From: an uncultured bacterium
GTDB lineage: Bacteria; Acidobacteriota; Aminicenantia; UBA2199
Assembly (NCBI GenBank): GCA_965371805.1
Contig: CBDUZW010000007.1
Coordinates: 56,119 to 120,118 of the forward strand
Direction of reading: 5' to 3'
DNA: 64,000 bases
Shown here: one piece after another, positions 7,487 to 62,659 of the stretch
Position numbering within the stretch: the stretch's first letter is position 1
How the letters are laid out: each line of letters starts with the position of its first letter
Program-made: the position numbers and the translations under genes
The notes under the pieces: model-generated
The model's database searches: none
Told to the model about the DNA's origin: nothing
The model's input: only the letters and a program-made list of their open reading frames with translations

Positions 7487-9808
7487 CTAAAACGATGGAC
7501 CAATTGCAAACTTAAATACAAAATTATTATCTTCAGAATAAAGCACTCTTGGATTATATGCGAATATTAACCTGAATGGGACATTGAGCATTGGTACAAA
7601 TATCTTTAATTCTGCTCCCATTGAAGAATAAATATTAGCTAAATCCATAGTTTGATGTTGTCCATATACATTTCCAAAATCTCCAAATAAATTAAAAGAA
7701 ATCTGTTCATTTAAATGGATCCTGTATTCAACATTCATGTAGAAAGATTTATCTCCACCAATTACGGCGCCTCTTTCATTTCTGGGTCCTATACGGTAAA
7801 CATCAAATCCACGAATTGATCTTTCTCCACCGAGAAAGAAATTCTCATAGAATGGAATTGTCTGCTCACCACCAAATCCCTTCATTTTTTGGTAAACAAA
7901 ATTTACACCGAATACATGAGATGTTTTGGGTATTTTAAAAAACTTAGTAAACTCAAATTTCAATTTATGCAGATTTAATGTCCCTCCAAGAAATCCACCT
8001 GAATATCTATAATTTAATAGAAATTTGATTCCTCTTGTAGGAAATAGAGGTGAATCTATTGTTGAGTAATATAAGGTTGGTGATAATGAAGAATTTTTTC
8101 TCCTCCCATCTGTATAATAATAACTTAAATATGAATTACTAAAATTTATATCATCACTTACTTCAGATATTTCAGTATCTTCAAAACTATATTGTAAAGT
8201 TGCTCCCCAAAATCTCCAGAATCTGGCAGATGAAGAAATATTAAAGCCAGTACCATCACTAGTGTACATATAAGGGTATCTCATTTTTCTTTTAAAAACA
8301 CTCAAACCAAGACTTGCGGGTAGTTGAAATATTCTTGGTTCTGTAAATGAGATACTATAGTTCTTTGTTCGGGTACCGGTTTTGATATTAACTCCAAAAG
8401 ACTCACCCATTCCAAGAAAGTTTTGAGTTTGATATCCAAGAGCAATAAACCATCCATCATATCCGCTATAACCCAGATTAAAATTTATCATTTGTCGGTT
8501 CATTTCCTTTACTTCTGCAGTAATATTTATCTTTTGCGGATCATCCGGGTCAGGTTTGATATCAGGCATTTTTTCAATTGTTACAAGCCCTAACTGCTTC
8601 ATTCGGGTAATAGATGCTTCAAGCATGTTTGAATTTAAAACCTTTCCTTCTCTTAAAAACCATTCTCTTCTGATAACATGATCCTTCGTAAATGTATTGC
8701 CTCTAAATTCCAACTTTCCTAGAAAAGTTATTTCTCCCTCATGAACCCTTATTGTCAAATCAACCTGCTTAGTTTCAGGATTAAGATTTTCTTCCGGGAC
8801 AACCTGACAATAGAAATATCCTATTGATCCATAAAACTTCCTTAAGTCCTCTATGTTTTTATTTCTCTTTTTTAAATTATATACTTTACCTTTTTGTAAA
8901 GTTATGAATCTTTTTAGAAACTCTGTCCTGACAATTTTATTTCCTTCAACATCCACATCTCTAAAAAAATACTTTGGGCCTAAATCAACAGGGATATCAA
9001 TCTTCATCATTTTTTTTACAGAACCAAAAACATTTTTTTTTGAAAAATATGAATATTTTGGATTTCCTATTTTTGCCTCTAAAAACCCCTTCTGTCTTAA
9101 ACGGAGAGTAACCTCTTTAAGGTCTTCTTCTATTTTATCCTTAGAAAAAGAATCTTTTCCAAGAATAGCATTTATAAGGGAGTGCTCTTTATTATTCTTT
9201 AATCCTCCCTTTAAAAATGATGCTGAAATAAGTTTTTTATCAATACCGGAAAAAGATATTTCCCCAATTCTAGTCTTAGACCCTTTTTTAACATTTATAG
9301 TTAACTCAACAGATGCCAATTTGAGATTCTCTTTAACATCAATTGATACACTTCCATCATTAAAACTCTTTTCAAGCATCATTTCTTGAATGATTTCTTC
9401 TATCATTTTCATTTTATGAGGGTGGTAATATGTATAGGTTGCAAGAGTTATATCTTTTTCCTGGAGTTTCTCTATTATATCTTTTTCACTGAATTTTTTA
9501 CTAGTGTTATAGATGATTTTGGAAATAACCGGGTTTTCTATAAAGGTAAAAGTAATCTGTTTTCCACCTTCAAGATTCTCTTCATCAATCTTTATGTTTT
9601 TAAAGAATCCAGTTTCCCAAAGTGTTTTAAAATCCTCTTTCAGCAAATTATCTGAATAAACACCATTTTCCTGCGTTTTAAGATAAAAAAGAATTGCGTC
9701 TCTAGAAACTTTTCTATTTCCTTTCAAAACGATTTTCTTTACCATATCTGCTTGAATTAGCAGCGTCATCTGAAGAATTATTAATAATATCAATACTGTT
9801 TTTTTCAT
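7487..9808 (-). CDS. bamA: Outer membrane protein assembly factor BamA (Omp85)
   Basis: 773 aa with a signal peptide, POTRA-like repeats and a C-terminal Omp85 beta-barrel ending in an aromatic residue (…FAIGPSF). Confidence 0.9.
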   Translation of the reverse strand: MKKTVLILLIILQMTLLIQADMVKKIVLKGNRKVSRDAILFYLKTQENGVYSDNLLKEDFKTLWETGFFKNIKIDEENLEGGKQITFTFIENPVISKIIYNTSKKFSEKDIIEKLQEKDITLATYTYYHPHKMKMIEEIIQEMMLEKSFNDGSVSIDVKENLKLASVELTINVKKGSKTRIGEISFSGIDKKLISASFLKGGLKNNKEHSLINAILGKDSFSKDKIEEDLKEVTLRLRQKGFLEAKIGNPKYSYFSKKNVFGSVKKMMKIDIPVDLGPKYFFRDVDVEGNKIVRTEFLKRFITLQKGKVYNLKKRNKNIEDLRKFYGSIGYFYCQVVPEENLNPETKQVDLTIRVHEGEITFLGKLEFRGNTFTKDHVIRREWFLREGKVLNSNMLEASITRMKQLGLVTIEKMPDIKPDPDDPQKINITAEVKEMNRQMINFNLGYSGYDGWFIALGYQTQNFLGMGESFGVNIKTGTRTKNYSISFTEPRIFQLPASLGLSVFKRKMRYPYMYTSDGTGFNISSSARFWRFWGATLQYSFEDTEISEVSDDINFSNSYLSYYYTDGRRKNSSLSPTLYYSTIDSPLFPTRGIKFLLNYRYSGGFLGGTLNLHKLKFEFTKFFKIPKTSHVFGVNFVYQKMKGFGGEQTIPFYENFFLGGERSIRGFDVYRIGPRNERGAVIGGDKSFYMNVEYRIHLNEQISFNLFGDFGNVYGQHQTMDLANIYSSMGAELKIFVPMLNVPFRLIFAYNPRVLYSEDNNFVFKFAIGPSF

Positions 9809-48884: not shown

Positions 48885-49325
48885 ATGATGATATCATTCA
48901 ATATAGGAGCAAAAATGAGTATTGAAAAAATTACAGAAGAACTTATAAATATTAGAAAAGATGCAGCTGAAATATCTAGTGGAGTTCTTGAACCACTCCC
49001 CTATGAAAATGATAATAGAAACACATGGATAGAAATAGAAAACCCTGAGTTTACCTCTCTATGTCCAAAAACCGGTTTACCTGATTTTGGAAAAATAAAA
49101 ATCTCATATCTTCCTAATAAACATATAGTAGAATTAAAATCTTTAAAATACTATTTCCTCCAATTTAGAAATGCAGGGATCTTCTATGAAAATCTAACTA
49201 AAATGATCCTCTCACATCTGGTAGCTGTATTAAAACCTTTTGAATTAAAGGTTGAATCAGATTTTTCTTCAAGAGGAGGTATAACATCAAAAGTAATTTC
49301 TAAATATAAAATGGAAGAAAAATAA
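48885..49325 (+). CDS. queF: NADPH-dependent 7-cyano-7-deazaguanine reductase QueF (type I)
   Basis: EFTSLCPKTGLPDFGKIKISY (catalytic Cys motif) and ELKSLKYYFLQFRN (QueF motif). The true start is probably MSIEKI at ~48915. Confidence 0.85.
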   Translation: MMISFNIGAKMSIEKITEELINIRKDAAEISSGVLEPLPYENDNRNTWIEIENPEFTSLCPKTGLPDFGKIKISYLPNKHIVELKSLKYYFLQFRNAGIFYENLTKMILSHLVAVLKPFELKVESDFSSRGGITSKVISKYKMEEK

Positions 49326-50860: not shown

Positions 50861-50862
50861 AA

Positions 50863-50947
50863 TGCCGGAGGAGGGACTTGAACCCTCACAAGGATAAACC
50901 CCGTCGGATTTTGAATCCGGTGCGTCTGCCAATTCCGCCACTCCGGC
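50863..50947 (-). tRNA. tRNA-Leu (anticodon CAA)
   Basis: The reverse complement reads GCCGGAGTGGCGGAATTGGCAGACGCACCGGATTCAAAATCCG…GGTTCAAGTCCCTCCTCCGGCA. It has a 7-bp acceptor stem, anticodon loop UUCAAAA and a long variable arm (type II). No CCA is encoded. Confidence 0.85.
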
Positions 50948-51288
50948 AATAAGTGGTAATTATAGTTCCAATTGAAATATATGTCAATTAGAAAAGTAGT
51001 TGAAAAAAAATTCATTCTATATTTGTAATCGAAATTATAAATTGAAAAGAAAACACTTAAAAACAATGATTAAATGCAAGAATCAAAAAAACAAAACTTC
51101 GTCACCTATCGGCACAAAAGTTACCCGAAGTTTTACTTTTTTATTTATTGTTTTTTATTTTAGATTTTATAGGCAAGTCTATATGTTCGAGCTTTATTTA
51201 AAAATTTCCTTCTTTTGTATTTCACAATCGCTAAGAATTTTAGATAAAATACCAACTCCAATAGTTTCATTTGAATGGAATTTGTTTT

Positions 51289-53430: not shown

Positions 53431-54417
53431 ATGATAAAAAACAATCAACTTATAATTTATCAGACTGAGGATGGGAAAGTTAAAATTGAAACTCATTTTG
53501 AGAATGAAACCGTTTGGCTAAACATAGAACAAATATCAGAATTATTTCAAAAATCCCGTTCTACAATTAATGAGCATATTCTTAATATCTATAAAGAACA
53601 GGAGCTTGATCAAGCACCTACAATGAGAAAAATCGGAATTTCCGGTTTTTCTACTAAACCTACCAACCATTATAATCTTGATGTGATAATTTCAGTAGGT
53701 TACAGAGTGAAATCTCATAGAGGTGTTCATTTTCGTAAATGGGCAACAGCACTTATTAAAGAGTATTTGATAAAGGGCTTTGCAATGAATGATGAACTGC
53801 TTAAAGAGGCCGGAGGCGGGAATTATTTTGATGAATTACTGGCCAGAATACGTGATATCCGTTCATCTGAAAAAGTGTTCTGGCGTAAGGTTTTAGACAT
53901 TTATGCCACTAGTATTGATTATGATGCAGATACAGAACAATCTGTAATGGTTTTTAAAACCATACAAAACAAAATGCATTGGGCAGCTCATGGTGAAACA
54001 GCTGCTGAAACAGTTTATAAGAGGGTTGATTCTTCAAAAGAGCATCTAGGATTAACTAACTTTAACGGTGAAATACCAACAAAAAATGAGGCTGAAATCG
54101 CTAAGAATTACCTTTTAAAAGATGAATTAGATATATTAAACAGAATGGTAACAGCATTTCTGGAAATTGGAGAAATTCAGGCATTAGACCGTAAACCTAT
54201 GTACATGAAAGATTGGATTAAGCAGCTTGATACATTCCTGCAAATGACAAATAAAAATATTTTAAAAAATTCGGGTACTATCAGCCATAAAAAGGCTGTA
54301 GAAAAAGCTCACAGAGAATACGAAGTTTATAAAGAAAAAACAAAGAATAGGATTACGCAGATTGAAAAGGATTTTATGAAACAAATTGAGAAGAAAACGA
54401 AAGGTCTGAAAAATTGA
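53431..54417 (+). CDS. RhuM-family virulence/mobile-element-associated protein
   Basis: The N-terminal …IIYQTEDGKVKIETHFENETVWLNIEQISELFQKSRSTINEHI… resembles the RhuM family signature. Size is 328 aa. Confidence 0.7.
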   Translation: MIKNNQLIIYQTEDGKVKIETHFENETVWLNIEQISELFQKSRSTINEHILNIYKEQELDQAPTMRKIGISGFSTKPTNHYNLDVIISVGYRVKSHRGVHFRKWATALIKEYLIKGFAMNDELLKEAGGGNYFDELLARIRDIRSSEKVFWRKVLDIYATSIDYDADTEQSVMVFKTIQNKMHWAAHGETAAETVYKRVDSSKEHLGLTNFNGEIPTKNEAEIAKNYLLKDELDILNRMVTAFLEIGEIQALDRKPMYMKDWIKQLDTFLQMTNKNILKNSGTISHKKAVEKAHREYEVYKEKTKNRITQIEKDFMKQIEKKTKGLKN

Positions 54418-54483: not shown

Positions 54484-55296
54484 TTATTTAACAGGGACAA
54501 ATCTCCATGAAACAATACCGCCTTTTTCATTTTTATATGACCCTTTAAGCGTATAGCCGGATGATGGGAGGGCAATCTCGAAGGCTTCAGCTGCGATACT
54601 TTCCCTGGAGGGATTTCTTACCGCTTCAGGGAACATCTCTTTAAGGAGTTCAGGAAAAGCTATTTTCCTATTATGATCCTCCATTTTATTTATTAATGCC
54701 TTTGTAATTTTCAGCCTTGAGTACGATTCTACACCCACTCCGGATTCACCCAGTTCTACATCATCAATACCCGGAGTGATTCTCAATGAATATGTCCCCC
54801 TGCTGTAATTGAACTGGAGATTATTTATATAATGTTCCGGCTCGATCTTTTCACTTCCTTTTCCGTCCGTCATGTACACTATTACCGCCTCTCCCAATTT
54901 TGAAATGTTTAGAATTGAAACGTTATATTTTACTTTTCCCTGCCCTACAAATTTATCTTCCCATCCTACTAATTCACCTTCCTCCCCTTCCAATTTACTT
55001 TCACTTCTTTTTAAGGGTCTAAAGGTCACCGTCCCGTCTATTCTGACCGTCTCAACTGTTTTACCGTATAATCCCTTTAATTTTAAAAAGGTGACGCTGT
55101 TATCGTAAAAACTTTCATTGAGATCAAGTTTATAGTGAATCTCACCTTTCCATTTTTTAATACTTTTAAATCTCGCCTTTCCTCTCTGTTGTGGAGGATT
55201 TGATCCTTCCGCTATTTCGAATAGGAGAAAAAATGAGCCAATAAGAAACATAATAAACAGGTTCCGGGAAAACAAAATTTTTTTTTTTTTAACCAT
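54484..55296 (-). CDS. Hypothetical secreted protein (GC-rich island)
   Basis: Has a signal peptide. Size is 270 aa. Its GC content is much higher than the window baseline. Confidence 0.45.
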   Translation of the reverse strand: MVKKKKILFSRNLFIMFLIGSFFLLFEIAEGSNPPQQRGKARFKSIKKWKGEIHYKLDLNESFYDNSVTFLKLKGLYGKTVETVRIDGTVTFRPLKRSESKLEGEEGELVGWEDKFVGQGKVKYNVSILNISKLGEAVIVYMTDGKGSEKIEPEHYINNLQFNYSRGTYSLRITPGIDDVELGESGVGVESYSRLKITKALINKMEDHNRKIAFPELLKEMFPEAVRNPSRESIAAEAFEIALPSSGYTLKGSYKNEKGGIVSWRFVPVK

Positions 55297-55506
55297 GACC
55301 CTTCCTCCAAATTATTATTAAATATAACACTCCTTTCCTAAAAGGAGAATCTCTTTATTGTAATAAAACATTCTAGTATAAAAAACTTATTTTCTCAGCC
55401 AGATTAAGTGGAAATTCTTCAGTCTTTGATCTGCACTTTGTACATTGCAATGGGTAAACTTTATAAACTTTGTAAATTAGATGCTGGTTGATTACGGAGA
55501 AAGGGA

Positions 55507-56019
55507 TTAGCGAAGTTTTCCAACATCATCCAGGCGGATTAGATGGAAGGTTTTTCCATCCCAATGTGCTGCTACTTCTGCACCTTTATGTGCAAGAGCA
55601 TAGCATGCACCAGCATCTACACCAGCTCTCTTAGCAAATCTAATTCCACGCTTTGGAAAAATCTCGAGCAAAGGTCCGAACTTGCCTTTCTCAGAAAGAA
55701 TTGCAATACCAGCTGCTGAGATCTCTTTCTTTTTCTGGAACTTGGCCAGGGCAGTCATCATCTTTTCCGGAGTTAAATTGGGAAAGGGTTGCATGAATGC
55801 AAGTGCCTTTTTGTAGTTCTTTGCATCCAATGAAGTATTGAGATCATGTAGAATGGATACTATGGCTTCTTTAGTAGGCTTAACAGACTCTCCGTCGGTC
55901 TTTGAAACTGTTGAATCCCAAGACGACTCACATCCACACACCCCAAGAAGCAAGGTTAATGTTAAAACTACAAAACTGACAGTATAAACGTTTTTTGATA
56001 AATTTCTTAGAAAATCCAT
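55507..56019 (-). CDS. Hypothetical lipoprotein (GC-rich island)
   Basis: Lipobox-like LLLGVCGCESS. Size is 170 aa. About 48% GC. Confidence 0.45.
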   Translation of the reverse strand: MDFLRNLSKNVYTVSFVVLTLTLLLGVCGCESSWDSTVSKTDGESVKPTKEAIVSILHDLNTSLDAKNYKKALAFMQPFPNLTPEKMMTALAKFQKKKEISAAGIAILSEKGKFGPLLEIFPKRGIRFAKRAGVDAGACYALAHKGAEVAAHWDGKTFHLIRLDDVGKLR

Positions 56020-56223
56020 AATTTGTCATACCTCCAATTTTTTCATATTAAAAAGTTACTACAAAAAAAATTTTATTGCAAATCCATTTTATTAAAACTC
56101 ATTTGAAATAAATTAAATAATAGGCTTATTTTTATTGACTTTATTTATTTATTTTTTTAGAATGCAGATATTATGTATCAGCAATGCCGGAATGATATGA
56201 AGGTATTCCCTGGAGGATAAATC

Positions 56224-58800
56224 ATGAAGCCTAAGAACATTAAGAGAATACTATTTATTATTTCTGTGTTTTTGATTGGGACAGTGATTCTGCTGCCTGT
56301 CAAGAATAGAAAACTCAGTCAAACTGAATTGGCAGAACTTCGTGATGCCAAAACAGTTCAGGTTATTATTGAACCTGTTACGGGAAATACAAAGAAGGTG
56401 AAATTTCCAATTAGAGAGACAATCAAAAAAATGCTGATCCCGGCAGGATTAAAATATACCGCTGCTAATGGGGCTATGGTTTTTAAGATAAAGTTAACTG
56501 CTCGTGCTCTCTCTCGTAATTATTCAAGATTCGGGTTTGGAGGTGGGCGAAAAGGGTATACAGGTGCCAGTATATCTGGGAATATTATCGTTTTAAAAGG
56601 AATGAAACAGTTTTTCAAATACAATTTTTCAGGCAGTGTCGGCACCTCTTATTCGATCTTATCAGGTTCTTATAAGTATCCCTCATCTGCTCCCTTTTCT
56701 AAAGCTTTTTTGAAATCAACCTTTCAAAATAAAGTCATGGATATCATAATAAATATTCAGGAGAAACAAATCCCTTTGCTGATCCGGTATTTTAAAAGTT
56801 CTAATTTCCGAATCCGTAAAGCTGCCATTGAAAAGATGTCCTTAACTAAAGATACTGCTGTATTGAGTTTTATATATCTTGCTTTAAAGGATAAAACAAA
56901 TGAAGTTAGGACTTCAGCAGCTAAGGCACTTGGACGATTTGCTGATCCCGAAAGTTTAAAACCACTCTTATCCATATTGGACGATAAGAGTAAAGCAGTC
57001 AGAACTGCAGTTCGCAGTGCCCTATTTAAAATAGACAGGAATTGGCGGAATTTGGAAGCCTGTAAAAAATTGGTACCTGTCTGGATTATTGCTCTGAAAG
57101 ACAAAAGCAGCCTAATCGTTGCTGGTGCCGTTGATGCTTTGAACGAAATTTCTGATCAAAGGGTTGTAAAGCCATTAATTATTGCCTTAATGAACAATTA
57201 CTCAACCAGAAAGAAAATTATAAAAGTCCTGAATAAAAAATACTCAGGTTGGAGAAGTGGACCTGAAGCTACAGAGGCGATATCTGTTTTTTTATTAGTC
57301 TTGAAAGGCCCGGATAAAAAAAAGAAAAACAATGCTATACAGGCGCTGGGTGAATTGGGCGGACCGATTGTTCAACAGCAACTTATAAAAACTGCAACAA
57401 GTGATCCTGTTTCATCGATAAGGGGCAGTGCACTCTCAATCTTATCAAAAAAATATCCTGACTGGGGAAAATCGAAAGAGGCAGTTAAAAATGTTCCCTC
57501 CCTGATAAAAGATCTGAGAAAACCCTCTTCAGATCTCAGATACCAGTCAGTTAAAGCCCTTGACGTGATTAATGATCCGCGCGCCATCCCCTCCCTGATC
57601 AGACTTATAAAGGATAAAAACTCCAGAGTCAGTAGTGCCGCATTAAATGCACTGAAAGATATCGATGATCCCCGTATTATCAAAACACTTGCCCAAATGT
57701 TAAAGAGTAATAATTATAGAATCAGAGAAAAGGCAATTTCAGCATTAATGAAACGGGATGATCCGAAGGCAGTTGATTTGCTGATCGGGGCGGCAAAAGA
57801 CAGAAAATATTCAATCAGGATAAAGGCCATAAATGGGCTGGTTAAAAAGGAGGATTCCCGTATAAACAAAATTCTCCTGGATGCATTAAAAGACACTAAT
57901 TATAAGATCAAAACGGCTGCGATTTCTGCCCTGGGTAAAAGAAAGGAGACCCTGGCCATTAAGCCCCTGCTAAAACTTCTTAAGGATAAGAATGCAAGAT
58001 TGAGGAATTCTGCCAGTTATGCCCTGAAAGGAATGGTTGATCTCTGTACGGTTGATACCCTTTTAGAATTGACAAAAAGTGACAGTTCAAGTTTAAAACT
58101 TTCTGCGTTAACTGCACTTGGCAAATATGACAGCCCCAAAGTTATTGAACTGCTAATTAAATCTATGAAAGATAAGAATTCCAATATCAGGCTAAAGGCG
58201 GTTGGGGCACTGGGAAAAATAGATAATGAGCGAACTGTAAAACCTCTTATAGCAGCACTTCAGGACAAATACTATAAGGTCAGAGAAGTTGCTGTAAAAA
58301 GCCTTGGAAAAAGAAAAGAAGTCCGGGCTGCAGCTGCTCTTTTAATGCTTTTAAAAAGTAAAAAAACAGTAGTGAAAAAATCCAGGTACTATAAAAAACG
58401 CAGGGTGACAACTCACCGTTCAAAAATTAGGAATACTGTTTTCAATGCATTGGAGAATATGGCTGAAGATCTACCGGCAAAACTTCTTTTGGATCAAATT
58501 AGAGAGAATAATTATAATATGAAGTACAAATTAAAAAAATTAGCCATAAAAACAGAGGATCCGGAGGCTGCAAACATCTATATCACTGCTTTGAAGGATG
58601 ATAATAGATCAGTTGTCCAGGTTCTAATCGAAATACTTGGAAGCCGCAAAGAACGTAAAGCAATAGAACCGCTTATCGAAAAACTGAAAAGTAGCGACAG
58701 AGGCATAAAAAAAAGTGCCTCTTATGCATTAAAATCTATCACTGGTAAAAATTACAAAACAAAATACAAGAAATGGAAAAAATGGTGGAAAAAAAAATAG
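56224..58800 (+). CDS. Membrane-anchored PBS-lyase-type HEAT-repeat protein with Lys/Trp-rich C-terminal tail
   Basis: N-terminal TM anchor. About 17 repeats fit the pattern …DPRAIPxLIxLLKDKNxxVRxxAxxALGK…. The C-terminus is …YKKWKKWWKKK. Size is 858 aa. Confidence 0.8.
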   Translation: MKPKNIKRILFIISVFLIGTVILLPVKNRKLSQTELAELRDAKTVQVIIEPVTGNTKKVKFPIRETIKKMLIPAGLKYTAANGAMVFKIKLTARALSRNYSRFGFGGGRKGYTGASISGNIIVLKGMKQFFKYNFSGSVGTSYSILSGSYKYPSSAPFSKAFLKSTFQNKVMDIIINIQEKQIPLLIRYFKSSNFRIRKAAIEKMSLTKDTAVLSFIYLALKDKTNEVRTSAAKALGRFADPESLKPLLSILDDKSKAVRTAVRSALFKIDRNWRNLEACKKLVPVWIIALKDKSSLIVAGAVDALNEISDQRVVKPLIIALMNNYSTRKKIIKVLNKKYSGWRSGPEATEAISVFLLVLKGPDKKKKNNAIQALGELGGPIVQQQLIKTATSDPVSSIRGSALSILSKKYPDWGKSKEAVKNVPSLIKDLRKPSSDLRYQSVKALDVINDPRAIPSLIRLIKDKNSRVSSAALNALKDIDDPRIIKTLAQMLKSNNYRIREKAISALMKRDDPKAVDLLIGAAKDRKYSIRIKAINGLVKKEDSRINKILLDALKDTNYKIKTAAISALGKRKETLAIKPLLKLLKDKNARLRNSASYALKGMVDLCTVDTLLELTKSDSSSLKLSALTALGKYDSPKVIELLIKSMKDKNSNIRLKAVGALGKIDNERTVKPLIAALQDKYYKVREVAVKSLGKRKEVRAAAALLMLLKSKKTVVKKSRYYKKRRVTTHRSKIRNTVFNALENMAEDLPAKLLLDQIRENNYNMKYKLKKLAIKTEDPEAANIYITALKDDNRSVVQVLIEILGSRKERKAIEPLIEKLKSSDRGIKKSASYALKSITGKNYKTKYKKWKKWWKKK

Positions 58801-58886
58801 ATCTTAAAATTCTATTTTGTAATTTAAACCAAGCAATTCCTGTTTATCACAAAAATGATAAAATAACAAAAAGAGCTAATGGATCA

Positions 58887-59789
58887 TTATTTCTCCCAGA
58901 CAATTCGAAATCCTAAACCGCTATCATTATAATTAACTCCATGACCGCCACGAACTGTAGTTCTTACTGTTTTGGGACCGCAATACCAGCCTCCACCCCT
59001 GAATGTATTTCCGTTTCCGGTTAATGGACCTTTTGGATTTACCTTTTCAGACTTTAAATAATAGTCCTTCTGATATTGATCACGACACCATTCCCACACA
59101 TTTCCAGCCATATCCATTACATTATAAATTGAGGCACCGGCAGGATAGGTTCCAACTGGTGAAGTATACCCAAATCCATCATCTATAGATTTATCACCCC
59201 AACCTTTTATTTTCATATTAACATCTTCACAATTCAATTTATCTCCTGACAATTTACTGTTTCCCCAGGGATATGTTCGGCCATCAGTTCCCCGGGCTGC
59301 TTTTTCCCATTGAGCTTCAGTAGGAAGATATATCTTTTTCCCGGTTTTTTTAGATAACCATTTACAAAACATCTTGGCATCACCGGAGGTAATTAAAACG
59401 ACCGGATGACTGTCTTTCTGCAGAAAACCGGGGTTTTTCCAGTTTGCTGTCTTAACATTTGTCCATTTCCCATTAACCAGAAGAGAGGCGCTTCCTTTTT
59501 TTTCAACTTCGGTTATATATTTCGCCTCCTTAACGAATTTTTTAAACTGACCAACTGTTATTTCATGTTTTGAAATAGAATATGTATCAAGTATAACATC
59601 ATGCACTGGACCTTCATTCTTCCACCTGTTTTTTACATTGGAACCCATTTCGAATTTTCCTGCAGGAATTTTCACCCAGTCAATTTGTAAGACCTTTTTA
59701 TCGAATTGCATCTCTTTTGAATCCAGAGCAAATTGAATCTGGACAAATAAAACCATGATCAGTACTAATAAAATTGCTTTTGTTCTCAT
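58887..59789 (-). CDS. Secreted FGE-sulfatase-domain (SUMF1/formylglycine-generating-enzyme family) protein
   Basis: Has a signal peptide and the motifs …GPVHDVILDTYSISKHEITVGQF…, …GNVWEWC… and …RGGGW…. Size is 300 aa. Confidence 0.8.
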   Translation of the reverse strand: MRTKAILLVLIMVLFVQIQFALDSKEMQFDKKVLQIDWVKIPAGKFEMGSNVKNRWKNEGPVHDVILDTYSISKHEITVGQFKKFVKEAKYITEVEKKGSASLLVNGKWTNVKTANWKNPGFLQKDSHPVVLITSGDAKMFCKWLSKKTGKKIYLPTEAQWEKAARGTDGRTYPWGNSKLSGDKLNCEDVNMKIKGWGDKSIDDGFGYTSPVGTYPAGASIYNVMDMAGNVWEWCRDQYQKDYYLKSEKVNPKGPLTGNGNTFRGGGWYCGPKTVRTTVRGGHGVNYNDSGLGFRIVWEK

Positions 59790-60208: not shown

Positions 60209-62404
60209 TTATTGATCTTTATCAAATAGATCACTTACTTCAGCTAAAGTTAAAGTATTCTTATATACTTTTATCTCATCAATATAACCCACAAATCTTG
60301 AACTTCCATTTCGGTATGATCCGAAATTAAAGTCTCCATTATTAACCGTATTTGAAGATGCCCTCAATGTAGCCCTTATAGAAGTAATTAATGGGTCTGT
60401 AACAGAGCTGGATAATTCGGTTATATAAATTTTAACCCTTGATGCAGGTATAGTCGTATTCCCCGTAATACCGCTTCCATCATATGTAAGGGCTACATGG
60501 TACCATCTATTTGTGAGTATTTCAGTATTATTCAATACATGAATTCTCCTACCGTTATTATTCCCATTTTGCCTCATGGTAAAATTGACTGCAAAATTAT
60601 TACTACCCACTTCCTTAACATCTAAAAACCAACCTCGACCATTATTTCCATTTGAAATTTTAGATATTAGCGTATATTCTCTGTTGGTATTAATAGAAGG
60701 CATTTTAAACCAGAGGGAGATTGAAAACTGATCTGTTGGCTCAAAATCAAAATCATCTCCAAATTCTACATATCCGTTATTGCCCCCATCGCAGTAAATG
60801 GCCTTTCCCCGGATATTATTAGTATCCCATAAACGGTCAATATTATTCATATTTACCAGTGTACCATTTATTTCCGGAGCATAATTTAGAAAACCGGATC
60901 CATACACAGTGGGACCATCCCCCTCTTCAAAGGACCACCAGACAAATTCACCAGTGGCAACCGGGGGTATTTCATGAACCAGAAGATGATGAAAACTTGT
61001 ATAGTGGTTTCCATCCCAGCTTCTCAAACCCGGCATTCCGTCTGTAAATGCGTTATCTGTAAAATTAAATCTCTCTATACCGTCAACCTTAATAATATGC
61101 CTTAATCCCGTAACAGTTATTGAAATCTGATGAGATGACTCAAAAACATCAGGGAATTCTGCAAGACTCATAATACGAGTTTGAAATGGAGCTTGTTCCT
61201 CTCCGCTATAAACTCTTCTAACGACAAAAGCAACTCTTCCTCCACTGGTAAGCCCCGGATCATATTGAAAACAATATCCGGAAATTAGTTCCTGTCCATC
61301 ACTTCTATAGTAGATGCCATAACCTCTCCCCTGATGTAAGGTTGCATTTACCTCCAGTCTGTAATCTTCCCAGTCGGCTCTACCAAAAGCAGCTCTATGC
61401 TCTCCATCGCCTTCTGCCCAGAAATTTCCATTATTGTCAGAAGCCCATGTTGCTCCTGGAATAATTGAGTTTATAGGTGAATATGAAGCTGAATCGGGAT
61501 CTGGTTCATCAGTACTATAGAAGGTTCTTTCAAAAAAAGGAGCATCAGGTGTAGTTGAGTCTCCATAAAAATTGACATTAAAAGGAGATCCCCCATTGAG
61601 GCTGGCAATTTTATGATATTCGTTATCAGCGGTAGCGAAATATCTATGGCCCACAGGGATTTTAATACCAGGCGCAGGAGTCTGGGTTCCATATACACCC
61701 AATGCTGTTGTTATAGTTGTAGTAAAAATGGTTCCAGTTCCATCAGGATAGTGTATATTTAAATCTTCATTATCATATGTTGTTATAACATCCCTGCTAT
61801 TTTTGTATTTAAACTCACCTTGAACATATGTCCATACTTCATTTTCTTTGATTTTTAATTCATCGATATCATCATCATTTGGATTTAAGCGGTCATAGAT
61901 ACCATCCTCTCCCCCACTGGCTATAGTTACAGGCCAGGCAATAGATGCCAGAGTACCGATAGGATTGCCATTATTATCATGGTAAAAAAAAGGATTCCCC
62001 CATGCATCAAGAGTGGCAACATAAGCTCCATTATTCTGATTGTCTTTCAGATAGGGACCTCGCCACCCAAACCATACATTATTTTGCTTAATAAATGAAG
62101 GATATGCTCCCTGTTCAAAAAGATCTATCAGACTTGCAGGCAGTACACCAAGATCTCCAATAAAGCCAAAGGAACTTCTAACTTTATTAATCAAAATATC
62201 TGGATTCCCAACAATCACATTCTTGAGATTATGGATTTTTTTAGTAGTAATATTTATTCTATTTACAGGTACTTTTTGTAAAAACAGGGGAATCGCAATC
62301 GTTACTGCAACTGTAATAACCAGGACAATAAGCATTACAGCAATGGCAGCAATTCCAGAATTTTTTTGTTTTTTTTCTTTGTTATTTCTCATCCTAACCC
62401 ACAT
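60209..62404 (-). CDS. GspG-like pseudopilin domain fused to large C-terminal region with LamG (concanavalin-like lectin) domain
   Basis: N-terminal hydrophobic anchor KNSGIAAIAVMLIVLVITVAVTIAIP. A GspG-core-like segment follows (WRGPYLKDN…LDAWGNPFFYHDNNGNP…SGGEDGIYD, compare the PulG …DPWG..Y…SLGPDG motif). The C-terminus carries a LamG-like domain (…NNGYVEFGDDFDF…FSISLWFK…). Size is 731 aa. The start could be at MRNNKE. Confidence 0.6.
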   Translation of the reverse strand: MWVRMRNNKEKKQKNSGIAAIAVMLIVLVITVAVTIAIPLFLQKVPVNRINITTKKIHNLKNVIVGNPDILINKVRSSFGFIGDLGVLPASLIDLFEQGAYPSFIKQNNVWFGWRGPYLKDNQNNGAYVATLDAWGNPFFYHDNNGNPIGTLASIAWPVTIASGGEDGIYDRLNPNDDDIDELKIKENEVWTYVQGEFKYKNSRDVITTYDNEDLNIHYPDGTGTIFTTTITTALGVYGTQTPAPGIKIPVGHRYFATADNEYHKIASLNGGSPFNVNFYGDSTTPDAPFFERTFYSTDEPDPDSASYSPINSIIPGATWASDNNGNFWAEGDGEHRAAFGRADWEDYRLEVNATLHQGRGYGIYYRSDGQELISGYCFQYDPGLTSGGRVAFVVRRVYSGEEQAPFQTRIMSLAEFPDVFESSHQISITVTGLRHIIKVDGIERFNFTDNAFTDGMPGLRSWDGNHYTSFHHLLVHEIPPVATGEFVWWSFEEGDGPTVYGSGFLNYAPEINGTLVNMNNIDRLWDTNNIRGKAIYCDGGNNGYVEFGDDFDFEPTDQFSISLWFKMPSINTNREYTLISKISNGNNGRGWFLDVKEVGSNNFAVNFTMRQNGNNNGRRIHVLNNTEILTNRWYHVALTYDGSGITGNTTIPASRVKIYITELSSSVTDPLITSIRATLRASSNTVNNGDFNFGSYRNGSSRFVGYIDEIKVYKNTLTLAEVSDLFDKDQ

Positions 62405-62659
62405 GATGTTAATATGAAGTTTGACTATTATTATTGTTCATAGTCATTTTATCTTCATAAATTTGATTCTAAATGAATGAAATTGAGAAGTCAACACCTG
62501 TTTAAATGATTTTTACTTTTTTAAGGATCAACTGATAAAAAAACAGGTGATTTTAATAATTTACGCTACTTCCAGAATTCCGCTATTGACAAAAGGTAAG
62601 CTATAAATTATAACTATATTTAATTAAAAAAAAAATTATTGTTTTGGAGGATTTACTAT

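Follow-up and report, generated by a model that had tools for sequence, protein, structure and literature searches.

Modular pilins, whose N-terminal pilin module is followed by at least one domain that is not specific to pili, occur widely, and their most frequent grafted modules include PF13385 and PF13620 (Raynaud et al. 2021, PMC8179133). PilC of Streptococcus sanguinis, the studied example of the class, consists of a pilin, an immunoglobulin (Ig) domain and a concanavalin A (ConA) lectin, and is a glycan binder for which a tip location is proposed (PMC9934059). In the 64,000-nucleotide stretch of contig CBDUZW010000007.1 from an uncultured bacterium, which is called the window hereafter, we analysed one gene at 60209-62404 on the minus strand, taken from the list of open reading frames (ORFs), which begins with an ATG, has its stop codon at 60209-60211 and encodes a protein of 731 aa. 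The protein shows the composition of a modular pilin, namely an N-terminal GspG-like module followed by Ig-like, CBM66-like and Laminin_G_3 domains, and it belongs to this already described class. Judged from its sequence, it is probably a modular type IV pilin of the pseudopilin class that serves as the glycan-binding distal or tip subunit of a filament.

The likeness to PilC (PDB 7OA7 and 7OA8) begins with the order of the modules, which is pilin, Ig-like and ConA-like lectin in both proteins. Small partner pilins are co-encoded with PilC, where PilA stabilises it, as they are with relatives of the window gene, and a tip location is proposed for both. However, PilC, a protein of a monoderm, combines an unusually short pilin moiety with a single lectin module and is encoded within a pil machinery locus, whereas the window protein comes from a diderm, Aminicenantes-like host, has a full GspG-type head and two lectin modules, gives no N_methyl match, lacks the glutamate at position +5 (Glu+5), and is encoded by a gene unlinked from the machinery. 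Beyond the fold, no sequence homology between the window protein and PilC was detectable.

The GspG-type N-terminal module

The 731-codon frame is uninterrupted, and one protein in public data (P0001) is 100% identical to its product. The AlphaFold2 (AF2) model of the full-length protein has a mean predicted local distance difference test (pLDDT) score of 85.9, and of 89 for residues 1-290. We searched 5.8 billion proteins and obtained 33 homologues, 29 of which are full-length and make up the family alignment (n=29); they come from metagenome-assembled genomes (MAGs) of Aminicenantes/Acidobacteriota type and from unclassified MAGs.

Residues 1-17 (62354-62404, minus strand) form a basic leader that ends in Gly17, and a prepilin-peptidase site is predicted directly after it (MWVRMRNNKEKKQKNSG↓I, the arrow marking the putative cut in KNSG↓I), as G17 is kept in at least 90% of the 29 homologues and falls on Gly-1 when aligned to E. 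coli GspG. Because there are two in-frame ATGs, for Met1 and Met5 (62390-62404, minus strand), and neither is preceded by a clear Shine-Dalgarno sequence, the true leader may be 13 aa rather than 17, with the start at Met5. Residues 18-65 (62210-62353, minus strand) correspond to the alpha1 assembly helix. AF2 models helices at 16-42 and 49-65 and then a small beta head, and the only matches of the family and subfamily profiles for this part in PDB are pilin alpha1 helices. Residues 18-42 are 25 uncharged residues, among which Pro39 stands at +22, as in GspG and in partner B, a small pilin described below. The GspG-like globular head, recognised by hhalign without the helix and by the subfamily profile against PDB, occupies residues 66-183 (61856-62209, minus strand) and contains FGFxGDxGxLP, WxGxxGPY, DxWG, SxGxDG and DDI.

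The assignment to pilins rests on profile-profile comparison together with direct phmmer relatives and paralogues, with no direct Pfam match. For the family alignment of residues 1-185 against E. coli K-12 GspG (sequence from NC_000913), it turned out that hhalign reached 97.4% (E 9.6e-12; 135 of 145 GspG residues aligned), and without the hydrophobic helix (residues 45-185) it still gave 80.5% (E 1.3e-5), while 52 unrelated control proteins reached at most 0.9%. GspH and GspJ align via the helix only, and GspI and GspK give no match (0.7% for GspK). The similarity to GspG extends about 120 residues past the helix, and the motifs W-GPYLK, D-WGNP-Y and SGGEDG that a preliminary description of this gene had picked out are all present and in register with E. 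coli GspG, with DPWGNdY/DAWGNPFFY, SaGPDG/SGGEDG and eDDI/DDDI as the aligned pairs.

Direct searches lead to the same group of proteins. With residues 1-290 as query against 1.84e9 cluster representatives, phmmer detected 897 relatives with E<=1e-3, of which 184 reach E<=1e-10. Of ten short ones (143-167 aa) that align to residues ~15-145 with E values of ~1e-12 to 1e-13, nine have Pfam N_methyl and/or T2SSG, and eight pass the N_methyl cut-off. A subfamily profile made from the window module and its relatives matched only type IV pilins and pseudopilins in PDB, and its head part matched only the alpha1-truncated GspG-type crystal structures 2kep, 3gn9, 1t92, 3fu1 and 4lw9. Two other comparisons were negative: a phmmer search of PDB sequences with the first 200 aa had 0 matches, and Foldseek of the 1-290 model against PDB returned beta-sandwich folds only and no pilin. 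One family member (P0018) scores 13.6 bits on Pfam T2SSG, below 21, and one homologue carries the JGI label “pseudopilin PulG”. Residues 1-183 are thus supported as a GspG-type pilin module, and the GspG-like core proposed earlier for the N-terminus holds in view of the hhalign result with its clean controls, the pilin relatives from phmmer, the paralogous B gene in 12 loci and the pilin matches in PDB.

With GspG/PulG/XcpT/EpsG (T2SSG, PF08334) the module shares the alpha1 register of Gly-1 and Pro+22 and the head motifs GPY, DxWGN.Y, S.G.DG and DDI. However, the window protein is five times larger (731 versus ~140-150 aa), has no T2SSG match, lies outside a gsp operon and lacks Glu+5. As its size, operon context and hidden Markov model (HMM) results are not those of GspG, it is no orthologue of GspG but a carrier module with the GspG fold.

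The same data bear on the explanation that this is an ordinary Sec-secreted carbohydrate-binding or glycoside-hydrolase-like protein, with an N-terminal stretch that is a signal peptide or resembles a pilin by chance. Direct pilin HMMs indeed fail on the protein, and a homologous DUF1080 + LamG protein at locus L010 has a Sec-type signal, but the hydrophobic run of 25 residues exceeds a Sec h-region, the positions from Gly-1 to Pro+22 keep a register identical to that of GspG, the GspG similarity runs on far past the helix, and the direct relatives are Pfam pilins. We regard this explanation as very improbable; judged by its 25 uncharged residues and by Gly-1 and Pro+22 in GspG register, the hydrophobic stretch is of pilin type and not the Sec signal that the preliminary description had named as a reason against its reading.

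The extension and its counterparts on other pilins

Behind the pilin module lies an extension of ~550 aa, for which a LamG domain had been described. LamG is present, but it is not the whole content of the extension, which also includes an Ig-like domain and a second ConA-like module. Residues 184-290 (61535-61855, minus strand) form an Ig-like or CarboxypepD_reg-like beta-sandwich spacer. Foldseek of the 1-290 model found DUF3823, CnaB-type and sortase-pilin domains (best E 7.5e-4), matches which we infer to belong to residues 184-290. Relatives of the pilin module have Pfam CarboxypepD_reg at the equivalent position, and an Ig-like domain is also found in partner B.

Residues 291-485 (60950-61534, minus strand) make up a ConA-fold module like CBM66 and DUF1080 (3keto-disac_hyd), identified by Foldseek and by homologous modules. 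They superpose on the Bacillus subtilis CBM66 structure 4azz with a TM-score of 0.78, a root-mean-square deviation (rmsd) of 2.7 Å and 20% identity, and the rmsd for 4azz/4b1m is 2.7-3.0. On this module itself Pfam PF06439 gives 14.8 bits, under the cut-off of 26.8, while homologous modules with 42-55% identity pass it at L010 (30.9 bits), L012 (38.3 bits) and L014 (43.0 bits). The CBM66 of B. subtilis levanase SacC, which binds fructan, is carried by a glycoside hydrolase, whereas the module in the window is carried by a pilin.

Residues 486-731 (60212-60949, minus strand) are a LamG domain opening with an invariant WW.FEEG. Laminin_G_3 (PF13385), which had been suggested for this part, matches residues 541-724 with 65.9 bits against a cut-off of 27.6 and covers profile positions 2-151 of 151; it is the only Pfam or NCBIfam domain above threshold on the whole window protein. 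Profile matches of the LamG region include the LG of pappalysin, the tetanus Hc-N and the carbohydrate-binding module (CBM) of an arabinanase, and Foldseek of the full model also finds PilC of S. sanguinis (7oa8, E 1.2e-6). Membership in the TafC family of fimbrial proteins (NF052521) was rejected, as the score is 34.2 bits where at least 410 are needed and comes from the LamG region at 488-729 only; Tafi are archaeal (haloarchaeal) Tat-dependent fimbriae (PMC11821415). From these comparisons, residues 291-485 and 486-731 are predicted to be two sugar-binding (lectin) modules.

Related modules are also met in other phyla, in connection with other filament proteins. At L012, L013, L014 and L017 there are proteins of ~295-350 aa with a pilin-pattern N-terminus and a C-terminal DUF1080 module, and both that were scanned, from L012 and L014, contain Pfam N_methyl and DUF1080. 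The middle module of the window protein is 47-55% identical to that of the ~295-aa N_methyl + DUF1080 pilins of L012-L014. Next to these pilins, according to Pfam and tblastn, stands an ORF of ~790-850 aa that matches GspE (pilin and ORF together within L012 6444-10420, L013 1778-5318 and L014 7288-10417), and in L012 Pfam resolves it as a Response_reg-MshEN-T2SSE ATPase. A gene for a small Cys-rich protein is found directly upstream of the pilin gene in L012 and L013.

Another arrangement is seen in L010 (304-11233) and L011, from Syntrophaceae/Smithella, in which T2SSF, a sigma-54 activator, two small N_methyl pilins and three minor-pilin-like genes are followed by a lectin protein. This last gene encodes 451 aa with a Sec-type signal, DUF1080 and LamG, and is homologous to residues 283-729 of the window protein. 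Its position after the minor pilins is that of PilY1. PilY1 and the PilC-type non-pilin adhesins of type IVa pili resemble the window protein in that a large adhesin is presented at the pilus tip via minor pilins, but PilY1 is no pilin and is defined by its C-terminal beta-propeller, whereas the window protein is a pilin without a propeller. The two modules are found again on other pilins, or in a protein of their own that closes a pilin operon, and we suggest from this that the CBM66-like and LamG pair is a glycan-binding unit that can be reused by different type IV filaments.

These loci also help to judge whether the window protein caps a pseudopilus like that of type II secretion, with its lectins in the periplasm, where they would engage for example glycosylated or polysaccharide cargo, and no external adhesin. 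The head is specifically GspG-like and not PilA-like, and the JGI label of one homologue points in the same direction. On the other hand, no GspC, GspD, GspL or GspM gene lies near any locus, heads of T2SSG type are frequent, too, among type IVa minor pilins and the modular pilins of many phyla, and the related lectin pilins adjoin MshE-type ATPases and pilin operons rather than gsp operons, so that a pseudopilus cap appears improbable to us.

Partner genes, Glu+5 and conservation in the family

Generally, the relatives of the window gene do not stand alone. Of the 14 distinct family loci with a readable upstream side, 12 have a small pseudopilin gene directly upstream, mostly in a cassette of three genes, A, B and C, of which C corresponds to the window gene. 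The cassette is complete at seven distinct loci (L001, L002, which is the same place as L009, L003, L006, L024, L026 and L027), and in L025 A is cut at the contig end. L007 and L008 have B and C only. On short contigs, L028 (the closest full-length homologue) and L029 have a B-type gene directly upstream, which is cut in L028. Partner A (184-212 aa) matches Pfam T2SSG with 31-32 bits and also N_methyl, while partner B (260-286 aa) has the canonical N-terminus GFT(L/M)xE, 26-27 bits for N_methyl and ~21 for T2SSG. Both partners are above the Pfam cut-offs for T2SSG/N_methyl. B is a paralogue of residues 1-280 of C (tblastn E 1e-18 to 1e-28), and the two have A as a further relative. By sequence, the three are nested, A being a pilin, B a pilin with an Ig domain, and C a pilin with an Ig domain and two lectins. 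No machinery genes were found beside the cassette loci, and no gsp genes (GspC-M) either there or in the window. L005, from a Candidatus Aminicenantes MAG that also has ~30% GC, is the only other solitary copy and has Gly at +5.

Some further variants were seen around the family. The C-type protein P0155 of L029 (1010-2482) has 490 aa and no LamG, with the B-type gene directly upstream, and together with P0159 and P0161 it makes a class of 467-490 aa, in which pilin and Ig are followed by a different single C-terminal beta domain in place of LamG. Extensions of other pilin-module relatives are Calx-beta + beta-helix, fn3 + IgGFc-binding, or CarboxypepD_reg. A gene for a sigma-54-dependent activator is located upstream of the B-C pair in L007 (5978-7498) and another inside the pilin cluster of L010 (1538-2851), which hints at sigma-54/PilR-like control of such pilin sets.

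The family consensus contains G↓xxALExMVV...TIAVPLFL, that is Gly-1, Glu+5 and Pro+22, and continues with the invariant FGFxGDxG..P, W.GxxGPY and DxWG. W114, G116, P117, Y118, D133 and W135 are invariant in the 29 homologues, and G136 is kept in at least 90%. At +5, 24 of the 29 aligned sequences have Glu, four have Ala or Gly (the window copy, P0016, P0029 and P0030) and one is N-terminally truncated. The cleavage motif without Glu at +5 noticed earlier is real: the window protein reads KNSG↓IAAIA, with Ala22 at +5. Because the family consensus has Glu at this position, the Ala is a derived loss of the window copy. P0155, the nearest relative of the pilin module (52%), has Glu+5 and an upstream B gene, so the change to Ala and the loss of the partner are lineage-specific.

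Besides, the residue at +5 goes together with partner A. In the eight sampled loci with A, C always has Glu+5, while in all four with A absent and the upstream side readable (the window, L005, L007 and L008) C has Ala or Gly, a correlation that amounts to only 2-3 independent events. GspK of E. coli also has no Glu+5 (G↓VALLI). Like the window protein, it is the largest pilin of its set and has an extra domain, and it is thought to cap the filament with the smaller GspI and GspJ, which parallels A-B-C. It differs in that there is no sequence similarity (the hhalign value given above) and in that its extra alpha-domain is inserted in the head instead of being added as C-terminal lectins.

For the conservation of the whole protein, the window copy keeps 143 of the 150 positions conserved in at least 80% of the family, and ranks 5 of 29. 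By module, it retains 38/38 positions in LamG, 56/57 in the CBM66-like module, 27/29 in the head and 10/13 in alpha1, which is the only module below the family norm (rank 25 of 29). These counts also answer the idea that the gene was left behind from an A-B-C cassette and is decaying into a pseudogene. It is solitary, it has lost Glu+5, and it has no obvious Shine-Dalgarno sequence or terminator, but the frame is intact at 731 aa, the conserved positions are kept almost throughout, both lectin modules included, and the GC content at third codon positions (GC3) is adapted to the host. Since 143 of 150 conserved positions are retained, the gene is, on this sequence evidence, under constraint and not decaying; we rejected a decaying pseudogene on conservation and give this explanation hardly any weight.

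Predicted function, genomic setting and significance

In the mechanism that we propose, the protein would be inserted in the inner membrane via its 25-residue hydrophobic helix, prepilin peptidase would remove the leader after Gly17, and a type IV filament machine whose genes lie at another place in the genome would extract the big pilin. Owing to its load of ~550 aa, it would be incorporated first, as the distal subunit, and the two lectin modules at the fibre tip would bind polysaccharide or glycan surfaces. In most relatives, A and B probably form a tip or priming complex with C. For the window copy, the absence of an adjacent A or B and the Ala at +5 would fit the topmost subunit of a filament, such as GspK: prepilin peptidase requires Gly-1 and not Glu+5, and Glu+5 pairs with the N-terminus of the next subunit up in the filament. 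A position in the filament body is unlikely because of the ~550-aa load, as has likewise been argued for the S. sanguinis proteins PilB and PilC (PMC8179133, PMC9934059).

Several points weigh against the tip-subunit reading. Cleavage, assembly, tip location and sugar binding of the window protein are all predictions. Pfam T2SSG and N_methyl gave no match to the whole protein or to its isolated N-terminal 200 aa even at E<=10, and NCBIfam gave no pilin match, with PilA_Myxo at E 0.11 only. A lack of pilin HMM matches had been named in the preliminary description as a reason to give up the pilin idea; it is literally the case for Pfam and NCBIfam on the window protein, and it is overturned by the more sensitive tests. 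No A or B was found in the window by tblastn with both partners and by a regular expression for canonical pilin N-termini, and no T2SSE, T2SSF, secretin, prepilin peptidase or PilMNO was found among the 46 sizeable ORFs of the 64 kb. Finally, Glu+5, which is normally required for pilin assembly, is absent from the window copy.

The last three points are what one would expect of an exapted pilin, that is, an unpolymerised glycan-binding protein of the periplasm or envelope, anchored in the inner membrane via a cleaved or uncleaved alpha1. Glu+5 has been lost and alpha1 is the sole module under the family conservation, A and B are missing here while at least B is present at 12 other loci, and no machinery lies within 64 kb. 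But Gly-1, Pro+22 and the full GspG-like head (27/29) are kept, which a mere anchor would not need. Besides, GspK shows that a pilin without Glu+5 still assembles, the L007 and L008 copies are also without Glu+5 yet keep B, and pilin genes are often not linked to those of the machinery or of their partners. Altogether we think exaptation unlikely, though it deserves more weight than the pseudopilus cap.

A more specific form of the tip-subunit reading, which we put forward only tentatively and expect to be wrong more often than right by a wide measure, is that the solitary copy without Glu+5 is a self-sufficient filament cap. If so, the big subunit would need its Glu+5 only for docking beneath A, in lineages that lack A the lectin pilin would have shifted to the very top of the fibre, and the family would offer a natural experiment on the role of Glu+5 in filament initiation. 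This presumes that the pattern of Glu+5 and A reflects function and not shared ancestry, and the same data equally allow a pilin exapted to a membrane-anchored lectin without a filament.

To describe the setting of the gene, we looked at its flanks, its composition and the rest of the window. Upstream lies a 290-bp spacer and then a divergent gene for an AMP-binding enzyme, and downstream a gene with an FGE-sulfatase domain. The best sigma-70-like promoter match, TTGACT-17-TAGAAT (62466-62494, minus strand), lies ~60 nt upstream of the ATG and is a consensus match only; sigma-70-like sites are not in excess in the region (14 versus 15.2 +/- 3.9 in shuffles), and the terminator scan found no intrinsic terminator for the gene. 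Its GC content, 0.372, is about 2 SD (standard deviations) higher than the window mean of 0.318 +/- 0.028, but its GC3 of 0.261 is within 1 SD of the native 0.236 +/- 0.032. The gene had been placed in a GC-rich island, which agrees poorly with this native-like GC3, and for the same reason a foreign origin of the gene is unsupported and was rejected.

Raised GC3 (0.30-0.35, against ~0.24 elsewhere) is confined to the neighbours at 54.4-59.8 kb, and because of this difference these genes may be a small acquired segment. On this side of the gene, a tRNA-Leu(CAA) at 50862-50948 (minus strand) is followed (53431-54417, plus strand, and 54484-59789) by DUF1841, a RhuM-family gene, two exported proteins without annotation, a HEAT-repeat protein of 858 aa and a protein with an FGE-sulfatase domain. 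The tRNA-Leu is not an obvious integration site, as its 3' end faces away from the region. At a distance of 7-11 kb from the big pilin gene, QueF is present in the window (48885-49325, plus strand, thus on the opposite strand from the pilin gene) and in the cassette loci L001 (21592-22161) and L025 (9812-10273); the downstream order of L025 is shared by L026 across the fetched stretch. This proximity could be residual synteny or coincidence.

The window contains a BamA-OmpH-FabZ-LpxA cluster, and the named relatives of its BamA (56-60% identity) are from Acidobacteriota and Candidatus Aminicenantes, from which we take the host to be a diderm. BamA (7487-9808, minus strand) has relatives of 81-87% identity in public metagenomes, against ~50% for the nearest full-length homologue of the big pilin, and more than 430 relatives against 33 pilin homologues. 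The big pilin is either patchily distributed in the lineage or poorly sampled. Our search of the literature on type IV pili in Aminicenantes found nothing specific.

In conclusion, the window protein is mildly new in three respects: two lectin modules are borne by a GspG-type carrier, the paralogues A, B and C are nested, and the window copy stands alone and without Glu+5. It brings no change to current concepts; its value lies in the annotation and in a candidate for studies of tip complexes and of Glu+5. Censuses based on signatures (IPR012902/N_methyl) miss such proteins, while profile methods recognise the pilin clearly. A, B and C illustrate growth by stepwise domain accretion, and the modular-pilin principle, in which a pilin carries a functional module for display at the tip of a fibre, is extended to an uncultured diderm lineage of saccharolytic type (Aminicenantes/Acidobacteriota). 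The glycan-binding unit suggested above would be relevant to the attachment of sediment and subsurface bacteria to polysaccharide particles.

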